63,150 bases of DNA, filler included, from Globobulimina sp. (GCA_003354225.1; 44 parts of 44 records of this genome joined end to end with filler, not necessarily neighbours in it), one strand, 5' to 3'. Numbered from the whole stretch's first letter, positions 1,680 through 60,380 are shown. Notes: generated by a model from the sequence alone, not told the origin. Program-made: numbers and translations.

Positions 1680-2778
1680 TTAATCCGAAATGATCGGAGA
1701 TATATTCATCAGGTCCACTTGGTATAGGTAATTGAATCTTTTTGTTTCTCTCGTGAAACGAAGAAGGTTTTTCCAAATTTCTACTTGAGTCTTTATATCT
1801 AGCTCCTCGTCAATGTCTGGAGGCCGACGGATCGTATAAGGATAGAATAGTTCATTAATGCTGAATCTAGTTCCATTCTTGAATCCATTCCAGATATCAT
1901 GGAATGCGTTTATCATTCGTTTTCTTTGGTGGATATAGGCCGGGCACTTTATAAAGAAATGGAATATCGATTCCTCAGCATTTAGATTACATTGGTTGCA
2001 ATTTGGGGACGTTACATCAGTTTTATCTGTATTTTTATATTTATGTTTAAATAAGAATTGGTTTATTTCAATATGTCCCGAGATGAATCTATTGTCCATT
2101 AATATATTGAAGGAGCGGTAGATTGTCTATGTAGATTTGGTAATGTATTTGGGAGTTATTGGGGGAATTTATTATATAGTTTAATATCATATGAACTGCT
2201 TCAATCTCAGCAGTTGTTATTGTAACAGGGATTTTAAAATAATAAACTTCTTTGTATGGCGAAAGATGAGAGGGTTGGGGTGGAATATATATCGCAGCTC
2301 CTCCTTTTCCAGGGTTCGGGTCGCAGGAACCATCCGTGAATGCTATGGTAATGTTGGTATTTGATGGCGTCGTTGGCTCAGTCGGTGCTAGGTTTATATC
2401 AAAGTTTGTTGGTAATTTTTTGAGGTTATATGCTGGCGAAGAGGTTATCTGTGTTTTAATCATATTATTTTGATTCTGTGTAAGTGCCTTTATGTCATTA
2501 TTATTATGACAATAATCTATGGCGATCATTAGGGAGTTTTTATTGAGGTTCGTAAATGTGTTTGATCTGTTTTTATTTTTATTTTTTCTACGATAATTGT
2601 GTGATTTTATGGTTTGTTTATATTTAATTAGCGCATTATATGTTTTATTCAATGGATGGTAGCTGTCGTTATAGTAAGCTCTGGCTAGTTGTCTCATGGT
2701 TAGGTAGTGGGCTCTATTCGTTATTGGTTCAATTTTTAGGCAGAATTGGAGGATATCCATTGGCGAGTCTAATCTGCA
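1680..2778 (-). mobile_element. Non-LTR retrotransposon 3' part: RNase H plus C-terminal zinc knuckle, internally disrupted
   Basis: RNase H motifs FTDGSCDPNPGKGGAA, TTAEIEAV and YIDN; then, in another frame, RFISGH..NQFL...SPNCNQC..EESIFHFFIKCPAY (CCHC-type). The RNase H C-terminal half is missing at about 2095. Confidence 0.85.
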
Positions 2779-2878
2779 NNNNNNNNNNNNNNNNNNNNNN
2801 NNNNNNNNNNNNNNNNNNNNNNTTAATTAATTAANNNNNNNNNNNNNNNNNNNNNNNNNNNNNNNNNNNNNNNNNNNN

Positions 2879-40264: not shown

Positions 40265-41299
40265 GAGCCATTTAAAGCTTTCTGGAATGCATAATCTTTG
40301 CCATTTATATGCATCAAACCATGTTTTAACTCTACACTCCATTCATTTTTTTTCCTCACAACCTTTGTGAATTGACATATTATTTTATCCGATGGATCTA
40401 AGTCCTCTCCATCATCGGTATCATCATCCTCTGAATTTAACGGTGCGTACAAATCACGCCCATTCACAAAATGGGTGGTCTTCTCTTTCTCTTTCACTTC
40501 ATCCTCATCATCATTCTCATTCTCCTCTTTATCACTCCTTTTCTTATTGTTGGTGTTATCTTTGATATCTTTTTGTTCCTCATTGTCATCCTCATCCTCG
40601 TCGTCGTCATCATCATCAAATCCCACAGTGGTTGGTTTCATTGGTGGCGGACCATCCATTTGTGGTAAATTATAAGTATTTAAATTCTGTAATAACGTTT
40701 TTATTTTTATTTTTTTGCGCAAGGATATAGGAAAAACGTACTGGCAAAGGATGAGTGAATGGGTTATGAACTTGATCAATTTGAGGCACCCCAAGACCTT
40801 GAATATGTGGATTATTTCTGGGATAATTTGGTTGGATAATATTTGGGGCATTTTGCAGTGGCGGCGGGATGTTATTATTCCTATTGTTGCTGTTTAATTT
40901 TTGTCTTTTTCGTTGTGGAGCCATATCAGTGATATCAATATTGGCATCATCGTCATTTGATAATTGCGTAAATGAGGCTTGCGGCGGTTGGACTGGATTG
41001 AACTCATTGGCATTGTTATTTGGATTATTGTTGGACACAATGTCGGTTTGGTTTGTATTGGTTGGATTTGTAGTGGTTTCTATGAGATTAAAACCCATCA
41101 TATTCTTATTATCAATGCAATGCGATTTATGAAGGTTTTCTTTCCATTTTGCTTGTAATTTATTCACAATTTCTGTGGCTTCTTCCTCATCTTTTCCTTT
41201 CTTTTTCAAGTCTTTTTTTAAATGATCAATCACATAATCTATGACACCAAAATATAAACGGAAGGAGTCTTGCGCCAAAGTTGTATGTAAAGTTGACAT
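40265..41299 (-). CDS. TOA1: Transcription initiation factor IIA large (alpha/beta) subunit; intron 40687-40741
   Basis: N-terminal YFGVIDYVI..LQAKWKENL; C-terminal LNSEDD..IICQFTKVVRKKNEW..LKHGLMHINGKDYAFQKA; the splice HPLP|NLNT restores the frame. Confidence 0.9.
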
Positions 41300-41715
41300 T
41301 ATTTTGCTTATGTTAAGGTTTTGTGTTTGGGTAAAAAACAGTAAAAAAACAATAATCATGGCTGAAATGTCAGACATAATTGGAACCAACGCAACAGAAG
41401 AACCAGAGTTTTGTGCCGAAACACCAAGTAAATTTGATATAACTGTATTTCCAAACGCCAGTCGAATCAATATCTTTGAAAAAGGCATGCATTTAATATA
41501 TTCGATCTTGTTTTTTAATAATAGCAACATTGCACTTTAATATGAAACGTGTAGAATCAGAAAAAAAAACAATAATGGCACCAAATGCTCAGTTACGACC
41601 ANNNNNNNNNNNNNNNNNNNNNNNNNNNNNNNNNNNNNNNNNNNNTTAATTAATTAANNNNNNNNNNNNNNNNNNNNNNNNNNNNNNNNNNNNNNNNNNN
41701 NATTTTAGGGATAAG

Positions 41716-43038
41716 TCGTTTTCGAAATCTATCCTTCGTCTCACAGTTTGACTTCCTTTGATATCGATTTGTGGAGTAAATGGAAACTTTACAATGCCAA
41801 AACAAATGCGCCACTGCCAGATACTTATCCTTGCGCACCCAAAAATCTTGCTCATTTTACCATGTGGGAAGAAGTTATTGTTCAAATCGGTGACAAAATA
41901 GCGTTTCTTACAAATGGTAAAAACTATTAACTAATTATCCGTTCACCAATATTTGAACATTTCAGGAAATTGGCCTTGGTACGCTTACTTCCATTATGTA
42001 TACAATTATGGTTCGAGTCCCAACAATTCTTGGATGGGTGAAGCGTTGTGCTCCGCGAAAGACACAAATTTACAATATAATAATGTGGCACTGGATCCTA
42101 CAAAAACTCATAATTCTGGCTTTATAAAAAGAATGAACTGGCTGTCAAATAACAGAGAAATAGAAACGTTTGGACGCTTTCCCTTTCCCATGGCACAAAG
42201 TTTGAAAATGCTTATTAACAAAGTCGGGATGAGAATAACGCTTCGGCATGCGAAAGACAAGTTTAGGTACTTGCAAATTTTTTTAAATTTTCAATCACTA
42301 ACGTTGTCGATTGCAGACTTATGTATGACAGCACCCAAGAAGATAAAGATCCTAAACTTAAACTGATGGATTGCAAACTAAAGATTGTACGAAAGGATCT
42401 GCAAGAAGGTTTGACTAACGCATATAATTCACAGTTGGCTATGGGAATCCCGATCAAGTACAACTTTAACAGAATAGAAAGTAAATTTTTCATAAAAACT
42501 TATCTCTTGCTTATACTAATATTACATTTTACAGTTCTTGGTCCTATAGAAGTTCAAATCGGTCAAAGCAGACTCGACGCTACAATATGCAATGGACAGA
42601 TGCCCTTGCAAGTATTCATGTTTTCTATAAAAACTCTTGCTGCCGTAGGTTCGGCTACAAACAATCCATTTCTATTTGATCCAGGAACATTAAAGACAGC
42701 TCAATGTAAAACTTTCTTTTTGTTTATTTACAAAAATCATAGCGATATTTTCAGGTGAGTTCGAAGGCACCAGAGTACCGTCGGTGGCTTACAGCCCAAC
42801 ATTTGATGGACCATCTGGGCTAAAATATATCGTGGCCCACGAATACATGGAATTTATGAAAGCTTTGGGTGTGACAAAAGACAGTAACATGGGTCCTCCT
42901 ATAACAATGCAAGATTTTGCTCACAATGACGCAGTGCTGACATTTCCCATGTCCAACGACGTCGTGTCAGAAGCTTACACTCAAGAAGTTCCCCAAGGAA
43001 GAACTTCGATTCATTTGGAACTTGATCCACCTAAACTT
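41716..43038 (+). CDS. Polinton/Maverick/adintovirus-type major capsid protein with four introns (41917-41965, 42267-42316, 42481-42534, 42706-42754), partial
   Basis: The spliced product has collinear MCP motifs: VFEIYP, APKN.AHFTMWEEVIVQIGD, WPWYAYF..YNYG, KDT, NSGFIKR, KMLINKVGMRITL, KYNFNRIE, GQMP, GSATNNPFLF, EGTRVPS..YSPTF, ITMQDF, GRTSIHLE. Confidence 0.8.
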
Positions 43039-43138: not shown

Positions 43139-43942
43139 TGACCGTAATTCGCCATCCCCCACTAACACAAGATTTGCATCATATCCTTCATCAAGAACTT
43201 TCTTCAATGAGTCAACAAGAACAAGTTGACCTTTTTGAGGGGCAAGCCTTCCCACACATACAAATGTTTTAGAGTTTACATTAATTGTGTCTAATGTATC
43301 AAAAAATTCATCGCCGACTGTACATCGAACCACATGTATTTTTACCCAATTTTCATAACTAGCCCATCGGCGAAGCTGCGCTGAGCAAAAATCAGTAATT
43401 GCAATTACAAATGATGCGTCTTTAATTTTTCCTTCCAGATCTATTCCTATAGGATCATCAAATTCTGCAGGGCCATGAACTGTAAAACTATAAGTCGGGC
43501 CACCCAAATGCAAAGATAGTCTAGCAACGGAACAGGGATTTGTGCCAAAATGAACATGAAAATGTTGAATGCCAAATTCCGTAGAAATATTAAATATAGT
43601 GCATGCCTCAAAAAAGTAGGCTAAATATTTGTGTATATCGCGTCCTGACTTAAATCCCATTTTTATTGCCAAACAAAAAGTTTTTATAAACTTGGCTGGA
43701 GAATATCGTATTACTTTGATCAAATTTTTTATATGCTCTATAGCTGGAAGAGAAAGGCAATGGATCGTTTTGGATGTTTCTTTTTGATCAGCCGGGTCCA
43801 CACTTTTTACTTTTGATTTACGTATAGCGACCCTTACTACTTTATTACCCCTAGATTCTATCTCTCGTAGTTCGCGCCTTATAAACGTATGACTAACTTC
43901 TGGGTATGTTGTTGTTAGATAACCAATAACCATTTTCGCCAT
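43139..43942 (-). CDS. Bacterial glycosyltransferase family 4 (WcaL-like), partial
   Basis: YPEVSHTFIRRE, HFHVHFG, YSFTVHG, VGRLAPQKG, LVGDGELR. Confidence 0.9.
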
Positions 43943-43982
43943 ATCTTAATCCCTTTTCTGAAAACGCAATGCTTGTTCTATT

Positions 43983-44440
43983 TTAATCCAGATTATATGT
44001 ATAATCATTTCTATTAATAATTCTTTTTAATTGCTCTTCCCTTAAATATTTTACAGCATCTATGGGAAGTTGCTTTTCTGTCTTTTTAATGGCAGCATCC
44101 ATATATCCGATCATCCGATATAAACCGGAAATAAAATATGGCCTTTCATAAACCATTTTATAAATGGCTTTAAAAACCATGAACAAGGGATGGGTACCAA
44201 CACCATAGTCAGTTCTCCCTATATTATATCTGGCGCGTAACAAAGTACCTCCACCACCTGTTCCTACCGGCCTGTTGTGTTTAACAATTACATCTTCAAA
44301 TGACCATGTCTGCCAACCTTTCATCCTAGCCATTATTTCAGTCCCTGTATCTTCTCCACCATATTTAAAAGCTATATATCCCCCAATTTGCTCATAGCAT
44401 TCACGGCGGAACACCTGAATTGCTTTTGGTGTAGACCGTC
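43983..44440 (-). CDS. Bacterial glycosyltransferase family 2, C-terminal part
   Basis: FRRECYEQIGG..GGED..ARMKGW motif; operon-like spacing with the GT4 gene (GGGA RBS). Confidence 0.8.
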
Positions 44441-44575
44441 GATCGATGTCTCAGATTTCCCATATATTATTTTTTNNNNNNNNNNNNNNNNNNNNNNNNN
44501 NNNNNNNNNNNNNNNNNNNTTAATTAATTAANNNNNNNNNNNNNNNNNNNNNNNNNNNNNNNNNNNNNNNNNNNN

Positions 44576-56300: not shown

Positions 56301-57406
56301 TTAAACTTTAAGTTTTTTGTTATACCAAACTGGTATGCAGTCTGACTTATTATTATCGTATTTAATTATGTTATTTATCTGCTTCCATGGCATTGTTCCA
56401 TTATTATTAACGTTCCTTAATTCATCCTTAATCCATGCTTTTCTTCCACAGTCACATAGATCATCGCTAATTTTTTTCTTTTCAATCAAAATATGTTTTA
56501 AAAGCTTCTTCTTTCTCTTACTGAATTGTCTGAATCTCTCTTTGTAACAAATGTGATCTTTTATGGCGTCATCCATGGTTTGTCATTGCCAATTCTTTTT
56601 TTTCTTAATCCTAAAATGTCAATGGATATATCGACAATTCTATGTTTAAAGAAATCATTCACAGCGTCCAGTACGTCGTCACGTGACAAACCAATAGAAT
56701 CTAATAAATAATCTCGGTTAATATCACAGTTTCCATTGCCGTACTCCGTCAAATATTTATCTAATAAATTATTTAGTGCTTTTCCATGAATATCATACCA
56801 TTCATCAACGCTTTCTGCCAATTCATTCCTCCATTTATCCCAATTTCTGTCAGACCCAGTTTTTATAACAAACTCTGGGCTGTCTTTCTCGTACAATTTG
56901 CCCTTATTATAAAAGGCGTATATGACTACGTGATCTGAATAATAACTCTTTGTCTCTGAATGTGTAAAATCCTCCGTCCAATACTTCCAATCATCCTCTT
57001 TTGTTTTGTTATTAATAAATACAACGTCAGGCGCTGTCTTCTGTTGTTTCCTTATTCTTGTTGGTTGCCCATCATTTAAAATCATGTATTTATTATCGTA
57101 TATCCATTCTGCTAACATTGTACCATTTTTCTTCGCATCGGAGGGTCGAATAAGTCCTTCAAACCACGCGTTATTTTGCGAATTCATGTCACCCCCAACA
57201 AATATTGGGAATGCGCCGTAGTTCTTTGTTGCGTATAATGTGTCTAAACAATCTAATAATAATCCAATGTGCGAGCCAGGTTTGCCATTTTGCGGTCGAT
57301 AGTAATTATTAATAATGAACGCTTGGCCCATGTCTCTGTCATAGATTTTTAGTGTCAAAATATATAATTTCGACATTAATAAAAGTGTTTTTTGTTCTTT
57401 CTTGGC
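56301..57406 (-). mobile_element. Non-LTR retrotransposon APE endonuclease region, frameshifted
   Basis: NYYRP, GGDMNS..W, ILNDGQPTR, PDVVF, SDHVVI and KPW motifs; frame break at KPWM (about 56570). Confidence 0.85.
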
Positions 57407-58942: not shown

Positions 58943-60015
58943 CCTACAAAGGAGGATATTTCCTTTGCTTTTGCATTTTGTCTTTTTCTGTGCAATTCCA
59001 ATAAATACTTCCCTTTTATTGTTGTTTTGATGATTTTGGCTCTTGGGATTGCCAAATAATTTTCTATACAATTTATTATAAATCCAATCCATATTAATAT
59101 CCGTGTCGGAGTTATCATCTTTCGTTTCTGGGTTGGGATTCCCAGCCAATTAAACGTCCATTTTATGGCAAAATATTGCTGCCAACATTTATTTTCATCG
59201 TGATGCCCCGCAAAGAAGTCATCTAAATAATTTCTCAAAATACATTTGTCTTCAATATAGAATAAATACTGGAATGTATTTACTATAATCCATGCCACAG
59301 TCGCTGCAAATAATGAATATATATTACAGCTTGAGGCGACTCCCAAAACCAGCGCCGTCCATAAAAATATCCAGTCTCCCACTTTTATTCCAAACCATTT
59401 TATAAAATTCTTCTCAATGGGGACTCGATTGAACGCATTTTGCGCGTCAGCCGCTACCATCCACCGTATGTTACATGTTACAATCAATCGGATAATATGT
59501 AATATGGTGGTATATTTACAACTTTTCTCATCTTCAAATATATTATCATTCGGTGCGAATCCTACGGTGTTTGTTTTGGAGCAATCGACTATGATTCGAT
59601 GTTTCTCCTTTTCTGGCTTATCAATCGGTGTATCATTCTTCATAAATATCGGATTAATATGATATTCTTCATAACCTTCCGGCATATTGTTCTGGTGATG
59701 GGGTCCCCAGATTGCTTTGTCTTTAATGCGTTTCTGGATTATTTCGCATTTTTTTATGTGCTGATCGACAGTTAATGGATATTCGATGTCATTCTTCGTC
59801 TCAATGTTTGGTCTCTGGTTTGCGGTTATTGTGGCACCGTTTTTCAGTAAGGACTCCATCTTTTTTTGTTTGGCTTTGTCGGGAAATCCAATGTTTCCAG
59901 TTTTTCCATCTGGCAATTCATTCATTGCTTGTATGTATCTCTCGGCGGGCAAATCCCAACATGGCGGTATCTCCGGCACGTCCATATTTTTCCATTTCTC
60001 GTATATTGCTTTCAT
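58943..60015 (-). mobile_element. DIRS/Ngaro-like (tyrosine-recombinase retrotransposon) reverse transcriptase, partial
   Basis: INPIFMK, KHRIIVDCS, ADAQNAFNRVPI, LVLGVASSCNIY, YLDDFF, LGIP...K, WIGFIIN. Confidence 0.8.
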
Positions 60016-60380
60016 TTTAGCATTATTTCGGACTTTTGGATGGTTCGACTTATATGTTTGTTCCTGCAGTAAATATTTATTTGTTGTGAGTGAGGGTTAA
60101 TTTTTTTTGAAACAAAATAAATAAAATCAATCTCCAAAAATTGAAAAGCGTTTCTGGCGATGATTATAATTGTATACACTCATTATTTTCAAGATAATAT
60201 GCATAAAAAAGAAAGATTGGATTTGTTTAAATATTTTTGAAATTTGCTTTCCTTTTCCCCCAACTTCTTTGGTGTTTTNNNNNNNNNNNNNNNNNNNNNN
60301 NNNNNNNNNNNNNNNNNNNNNNTTAATTAATTAANNNNNNNNNNNNNNNNNNNNNNNNNNNNNNNNNNNNNNNNNNNNTA

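Follow-up and report, generated by a model that had tools for sequence, protein, structure and literature searches.

A Maverick/Polinton-type capsid gene, very probably split by four short introns, on a contig of the Globobulimina sp. assembly

The window analysed here, a stretch of 63,150 nucleotides (nt) from the Globobulimina sp. assembly GCA_003354225.1, consists of 44 unlinked contigs of 1336-1339 nt each (GC 0.25-0.445), arranged by length with spacers of N plus TTAATTAATTAA between them; adjacency within it is therefore uninformative on linkage. One of these contigs, at 41702-43038 (1337 nt, GC 0.376), is occupied over its whole length by a gene that runs off both ends, and this is very probably a capsid gene of the Polinton (Maverick) type divided by introns.

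The gene lies on the + strand and comprises five exons. Exon 1, which is 5'-partial, spans 41716-41916 (in-frame codons 41715-41915) and is followed by intron 1 at 41917-41965 (49 nt, phase 1, GTAAAA...TTTCAG, with a CTAAT present). The open reading frame (ORF) of exon 2, at 41966-42266, matches both the family profile described below and a close relative, P0002; intron 2, at 42267-42316 (50 nt, phase 2, GTACTT...TTGCAG), carries a CTAAC whose branch A stands 15 nt from the intron end. Exon 3 (42317-42480, profile positions 215-267) is separated by intron 3 (42481-42534, 54 nt, phase 1, GTAAAT...TTACAG, CTAAT 15 nt from the end) from exon 4 (42535-42705, profile positions 279-319), at whose boundary the alignment of a second close relative, P0001, starts. 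Intron 3 is stop-free in frame, and a gene caller would read through it. Intron 4, at 42706-42754 (49 nt, phase 1, GTAAAA...TTTCAG), has no CTAAY, and exon 5 (42755-43038, profile positions 323-404 of 437) is truncated by the contig end. This is the arrangement that a first-pass annotation of the DNA had drawn, and it held up throughout: the four GT-AG introns of 49, 50, 54 and 49 nt lie exactly where they had been placed, the residues at the junctions are as given (TN/G/NWP, KF/R/LMY, RIE/I/LGP and AQ/C/EFEG), branch-like CTAAY motifs occur in three of the four introns, and the 14 nt of contig left upstream of exon 1 (41702-41715) hold both the in-frame TAA (41712-41714) and the possible, weak acceptor AG (41714-41715) that had been pointed out.

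The joined exons amount to 373 codons free of stops in one frame; the two alternative frames contain 21 and 24 stops. Exons and introns differ in GC (0.40 for exons, 0.25 for introns, single introns ranging over 0.20-0.30). When the intron interiors were shuffled 5000 times, CTAAY turned up in at least three of the four in 80 cases. As a chance control we determined the longest open path when up to four GT-AG introns of 40-60 nt are allowed; the + strand has one of 1191 nt and the - strand one of 634 nt. Across 60 dinucleotide-shuffled versions, with both strands counted, no path exceeded 807 nt (mean 523, sd 95). The four-intron pattern is real, beyond chance.

The identity of the gene was approached with a profile, A1, built from 25 proteins annotated 'F54H12.2-like' and searched against the 50 six-frame ORFs of the contig. 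Matches fell on + strand ORFs only (best - strand ORF, E 0.34) and were collinear with the profile, covering positions 65-110 with exon 1 (weak, E 0.05), 116-216 with exon 2 (4e-16), 215-267 and 279-319 with the ORF that runs through exons 3 and 4 (3e-11) and 323-404 with exon 5 (9e-8). Between its two matches the exon 3/4 ORF has 29 residues for 11 profile positions, and the two become equal once the 18 intron codons are removed. When the search was extended to the 1282 ORFs of at least 25 amino acids (aa) in the whole window, three ORFs scored E 2e-6 or better, all of them on this contig, and the next best stood at E 0.95. For searches with the spliced product, the exons were joined with X at the four split codons; the product matched A1 as a single collinear domain (159.5 bits, E 6.4e-51 with Z=1, positions 67-404 of 437), gapless at junctions 1, 2 and 4 and with a one-residue insert at junction 3. 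In BLASTP against a set of 97 proteins it found P0001 at 67% identity, P0002 at 59%, the Lingula 'F54H12.2-like' protein P0013 at E 1e-26, and dozens of further family members at 20-27% identity over 330-370 residues. On these alignments we take the gene to be a genuine but divergent member of the F54H12.2-like family.

The same alignments bear on the suggestion that the contig is a decaying endogenous viral fossil, a view on which the supposed introns are insertions and the open frame is a remnant. The in-frame TAA just upstream of exon 1 would suit decay, and so would the situation in vertebrates, where, in the available part of one source (PMC8097293), intact Mavericks are intronless and most loci are degraded, with insertions that can resemble introns. 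Set against this, all four inserts have GT-AG ends, a GC of 20-30% and lengths that restore the frame exactly, the joined product is gapless against the profile at three junctions, and its open path is longer than in all 60 shuffles; we regard the fossil as very unlikely, and the codon changes described below count against it too.

Exon 2 was searched with HMMER against 1.84 billion representative proteins and gave 12 matches at E 0.001 or better, among them P0002 (66% identity, E 1e-38). Six of the 12 are capsid relatives (P0002, P0005, P0007, P0009, P0010 and P0013). The remaining six (P0003, P0004, P0006, P0008, P0011 and P0012) are long proteins that we treated as spurious: four are rich in InlB B-repeat or SRCR repeats and two have scattered weak Pfam matches, while five match in several short stretches and P0008 has no matched stretch. 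The 498-aa P0013 in turn recruits 85 proteins, mostly of 430-445 aa, from molluscs, insects, fish and many metagenome contigs. Prokaryote genome contigs, queried with exon 2 and P0001, yielded no relatives.

The function of the family can be read from its fold and from the company its genes keep. We modelled P0022 (Mizuhopecten) as the representative, using AlphaFold2 with alignment A1 (predicted local distance difference test score, pLDDT, 87.3; predicted template modelling score, pTM, 0.87). Foldseek against the PDB returned viral capsids, with top matches at E 1e-13 to 4e-17: the PBCV-1 capsid at 3.6e-17, the Sputnik major capsid protein (MCP) at 1e-15, the mavirus MCP at 3.5e-14, and also the MCP of Singapore grouper iridovirus (SGIV). 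Against BFVD the best match was a Cotesia bracovirus protein (37% identity, E 7e-38), followed by adomavirus LO7, MELD virus and virophage MCPs. The predicted fold of the family, taken from this representative, is a double jelly roll. As a lead only, a search of the ESM Atlas with P0001 gave nearest clusters in which 17-40% of members carry PF21738 DJR-like_dom (score 0.97-0.98).

Gene context came from JGI metagenome contigs, where, of 591 pattern matches, 585 proved to be relatives; 80 loci were retained, and in every one of them the capsid protein is one uninterrupted match. Pfam assigned to the neighbours in two loci (L019 and L059) an integrase with rve and chromodomain, an A32/IVa2-like ATPase and pPolB (PF03175); directly downstream of the capsid gene lies a 143-aa ORF whose Ulp1/C48 match is weak (17.4 bits, below the cut-off of 20.7; E 0.004). 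By tblastn, all 15 loci of at least 8 kb have the protease-like ORF, 14 the integrase, 13 the ATPase and 12 pPolB. Because of this fold and this gene context of the intronless members, the family is the major capsid protein of Maverick/Polinton (adintovirus-like) elements, and the proposal of a Polinton/adintovirus-type double-jelly-roll capsid is thus supported by the collinear profile homology on the + strand, by the family fold and by the neighbourhood of the intronless relatives. As a side observation, an ORF at 2094-2807 (+) of L019 combines DUF5679 with a PLA2-like domain (PF08398, E 9e-12); it has tblastn matches in 5 of the 80 metagenome loci.

The relatives speak to the introns as well, and at junctions 1, 2 and 4 they support the spliced gene that had been proposed. 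P0001 (188 aa, 67-70% identical) crosses junction 4 with no extra residue, and it starts within one residue of the exon 4 boundary. P0002 (153 aa, from a source contig of 3025 nt) carries, exactly at junction 1, 17 extra in-frame residues (51 nt) that all the other six aligned relatives lack; this is how a stop-free, in-frame intron of 51 nt would look if the gene caller had read through it. The P0002 ORF then ends one residue past junction 2, which is where it should end if its stop comes from a GTAA donor. At about 30% identity the relatives are uninterrupted, P0005 and P0009 across junctions 1 and 2 and P0007 across 2, 3 and 4, so that the introns are a feature of this sub-lineage, within which intron 4 varies, being present here and absent in P0001. 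Indirect support for the introns is good. In protein collections, intron-bearing capsid genes of this kind are probably represented by exon-sized or chimeric fragments (compare P0002).

We also tried, and rejected, a derivation of the four introns from introners. The introns are alike only at the level of their splice sites, and no repeat family was seen in the window. Intron pairs do align slightly better than shuffles, an excess for which the shared splice ends would account, and beyond chance-level short matches the introns have no match of at least 15 nt elsewhere in the 63-kb window, which is a very small sample of the genome.

Further copies were sought among the contigs of one public sample (run X1), aligned to the stretch. 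Nine pieces were found, none at 99% identity or above, one at 95-99%, one at 90-95% and seven under 90%. A copy of 1113 nt is about 97% identical over 41946-42270 and 42344-43038, with introns 3 and 4 spanned without a gap; between these blocks, 42271-42343, which takes in most of intron 2 and reaches 27 nt into exon 3, is replaced by 69 unlike letters. In another copy all five indels listed fall inside intron 1. The X1 copies keep introns 1, 3 and 4, and among the alignment joints listed none removes an intron. Up to three distinct further X1 contigs, about 84-97% identical, overlap on the same parts of the gene.

Differences between copies and the window gene were classified for 40 of 72, with 8 in intron 1 and 32 in exons. 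The exonic ones make 27 changed codons, 20 of them synonymous and 7 non-synonymous, and the replacements among these listed changes are conservative (e.g., L/I, I/V, A/V). This excess of synonymous changes suggests that purifying selection acted while the copies diverged, which is the further argument against a fossil announced above.

Since several diverged, intron-keeping copies occur in one sample and their differences are mostly synonymous, we lean towards the view that the capsid gene belongs to a mobile lineage rather than being a domesticated gene. Its chief rival is domestication, in which the host captured a Maverick capsid gene that has left the mobile element and now serves a host function as an ordinary nuclear gene with introns. 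For it one can cite the intact frame and the predominance of synonymous changes, the match in size and style between the capsid introns and the intron of a host-type TFIIA gene in the same assembly, and the conservation of intron positions in a relative with 66% protein identity (P0002); in part of one source, introns in transcripts of viral regions are likewise read as possible domestication (PMC10675990). Against it, the further contigs, up to three at about 84-97% in a single sample, resemble a repeat family more than a lone gene, unless several related hosts were sampled together, and intron 4 is absent from the 67-70% identical P0001. We consider domestication unlikely.

The variants would also fit a virus population, and together with the purifying pattern they give some room to a free (exogenous) adintovirus-like nuclear DNA virus with a spliced capsid gene, in which case the contig would be viral and not host DNA. 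Nuclear DNA viruses can use the host spliceosome. This explanation has to contend with IMG/VR viral contigs, where pattern-limited searches with A1, exon 2 and P0001 found no relatives, with the family itself, whose capsid protein is uninterrupted in all 80 kept loci, and with intact elements that are described as intronless in the available parts of four sources (PMC8097293, 10.1101/2022.07.12.499685, PMC10120064, PMC8547959). It seems to us improbable.

What we find the best explanation as a whole, and hold to be somewhat better than even, is a constrained, multi-copy Maverick-like lineage with introns acquired in the capsid gene. The contig would cover about codons 50-405 of the roughly 437 of a divergent Maverick/Polinton-type double-jelly-roll MCP gene, situated in the nuclear DNA of an AT-rich eukaryote and interrupted by four short spliceosomal introns. 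The capsid gene would be transcribed in the nucleus, and the host spliceosome would excise the four introns (GTAA/GTAC...YAG, with a CTAAY branch-like motif in three); the spliced mRNA would be translated into a capsid protein that would assemble into trimeric, pseudo-hexameric capsomers. In this account the core genes of a still-constrained, multi-copy Maverick-like lineage acquired introns, and replication or transposition at the DNA level would carry them into each new copy, so that diverged copies would have introns in common. We infer that the gene is expressed, that its protein assembles into capsids, and that it forms part of a complete element and is mobile.

Several points weigh against this account. 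The in-frame TAA stands one codon upstream of exon 1, and the sole candidate for an upstream acceptor is AAG (41713-41715), unlike the four CAG acceptors; the copy may continue in a further upstream exon, or may be damaged at its 5' end. On a contig of 1.3 kb, neighbouring genes, inverted repeats and host flank are out of sight, and tblastn found no other Polinton core genes on the remaining 43 contigs. Searches of the five exons matched no PHROGs family and, in Pfam, gave one match below cut-off (EFCAB10_C, E 0.039, 14 bits), and Pfam gave nothing relevant on P0013. With a single family MCP as query (that of L019), tblastn did not reach the contig at E 1 or better; the relationship thus needs the profile or the joined product to be seen. 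The model of P0001, the close relative that represents the C-terminal half (pLDDT 75.9), had no PDB match at E 0.001 or better, its weak capsid matches being to PBCV-1 at E 0.009-0.011 with template modelling (TM) scores of 0.44-0.47. Splicing we infer from the sequence, and the synonymous count is a partial one. Lastly, several species may have been sampled together, in which case the X1 copies could be orthologues and not paralogues.

Pfam on P0001 and four other relatives gave nothing relevant, and a sequence search of the PDB with P0013 returned chance-level matches only (E 0.15 or worse). As for the extent of the gene, about 50-65 N-terminal positions of the family profile lie ahead of the part that the contig encodes (match from position 67, envelope from residue 2), and about 45 C-terminal residues are absent from the contig, judging by P0001, which has 43 residues beyond the aligned part.

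Compared with known systems, the gene shows full-length collinear homology to F54H12.2-like Maverick MCPs (e.g., P0013 of Lingula and P0022 of Mizuhopecten), from which it differs by its low identity (20-27%) and by its four introns, their genes being uninterrupted (80 of 80 loci). The best BFVD match of the family model, R9XLG5 (Maverick copy of Cotesia sesamiae Mombasa bracovirus; 37% identity, E 7e-38), is a relative of the main intronless family and is likened through the P0022 model, not to the window gene directly. The capsids of Sputnik (3J26), mavirus (6G44/6G45) and PBCV-1 (Vp54, 6NCL) have a fold like that of the family representative (TM 0.5-0.67, E 1e-15 to 4e-17), with a sequence identity of 9-13%, and are not of the same family.

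Nematode and vertebrate Mavericks, as far as the available parts of the sources go, have the same kind of capsid gene as the window's, theirs being intronless in intact elements. For nematodes, part of one source describes core genes as intronless, with introns in cargo genes only, and a Maverick MCP of C. plicata modelled as a double jelly roll like those of Sputnik, Faustovirus and PBCV-1 (10.1101/2022.07.12.499685). Cafeteria endogenous virophage-like elements are without introns in the portion available of another (PMC8547959), and a large survey that used a prokaryotic gene caller states, in the part available, that endogenous viruses "do not contain introns" (PMC10120064). In dinoflagellates, according to the parts at hand, transposon copies called introners form spliceosomal introns in maverick-polinton-like proviruses (PMC11957031 / PMC12166617). 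The likeness, so far as those parts describe the proviruses, lies in spliceosomal introns inside integrated Maverick-Polinton-like elements that still bear capsid genes; the difference is that their introns are introners and those of the window form no repeat family, and the same host is unlikely. Uninterrupted core ORFs are typical of intact Polintons and not a formal criterion; the window gene, with its four introns, departs from them. A search confined to the available parts of the literature brought up no account of a Maverick capsid ORF divided by several short, conserved introns, and by title or abstract none of the papers listed treated the F54H12.2 protein; the words intron, exon or splic- do not occur in Krupovic et al. 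2014.

A four-intron capsid gene of the Maverick type is thus an uncommon feature, and one supported by relatives; the unusual point is that core genes of such elements are normally described as intronless, at least in the parts of the literature available. Were the reading as an intron-bearing lineage true, introns would be conserved across copies more than 30% apart in protein sequence, introns would be gained or lost between sub-lineages (intron 4 here, not in P0001), and surveys that combine prokaryotic gene finders with an assumption of intronless genes would miss or fragment such lineages. Large surveys do, in the portions available, assume intronless core genes and use prokaryotic gene callers (PMC10120064; 10.1101/2025.04.19.649669). 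That the contig belongs to a hitherto unrecognised Maverick/Polinton virus lineage, still mobile or infectious and in need of the host spliceosome for capsid expression, is a possibility that we regard as doubtful. Maverick/Polinton elements stand at the border between viruses and transposons. Either some of their lineages have been resident in the nucleus for long, gaining host gene architecture and keeping their capsid, or a host took over a capsid; both readings are relevant to the way in which virus-like elements turn into resident genes, and to the diversity that current screens miss.

As to the host, eukaryotic genes occur on other contigs of the window, for a Nop14-like protein, a DEAD-box helicase, PCMT and TFIIA. 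The TFIIA large-subunit-like gene, at 40267-41536 (-), matches PF03153 in its C-terminal part (E 7e-11), and its protein has Asn-rich and acidic low-complexity tracts. A 55-nt intron (40687-40741, GTACGT...TTACAG) joins two of its ORFs in frame; it lies on a neighbouring contig that is unlinked to the capsid contig, and its similar style fits residence of the capsid gene in the same nuclear genome without proving it. Same-genome residence is unproven because at least one window contig looks bacterial, namely that at 43139-44475 (-), where two uninterrupted ORFs lie on the same strand, one a group-1 glycosyltransferase (PF00534, E 3e-6); it is either a contaminant contig or a gene transferred into a eukaryote. 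GC at third codon positions is 0.376 in the capsid exons, inside the spread of other window ORFs (0.19-0.55) and so non-discriminating. CTAAY motifs and introns of about 50 nt would be in keeping with many fungi and small invertebrates. Neither Rfam nor a tRNA scan gave a match in the window, and the ESM Atlas placed the DEAD-box helicase ORF among mixed eukaryotic taxa. Two further contigs carry ORFs of non-LTR (long terminal repeat) retrotransposons, an endonuclease (PF14529) at 56564-57406 (-) and a reverse transcriptase (PF00078) at 58945-60096 (-).

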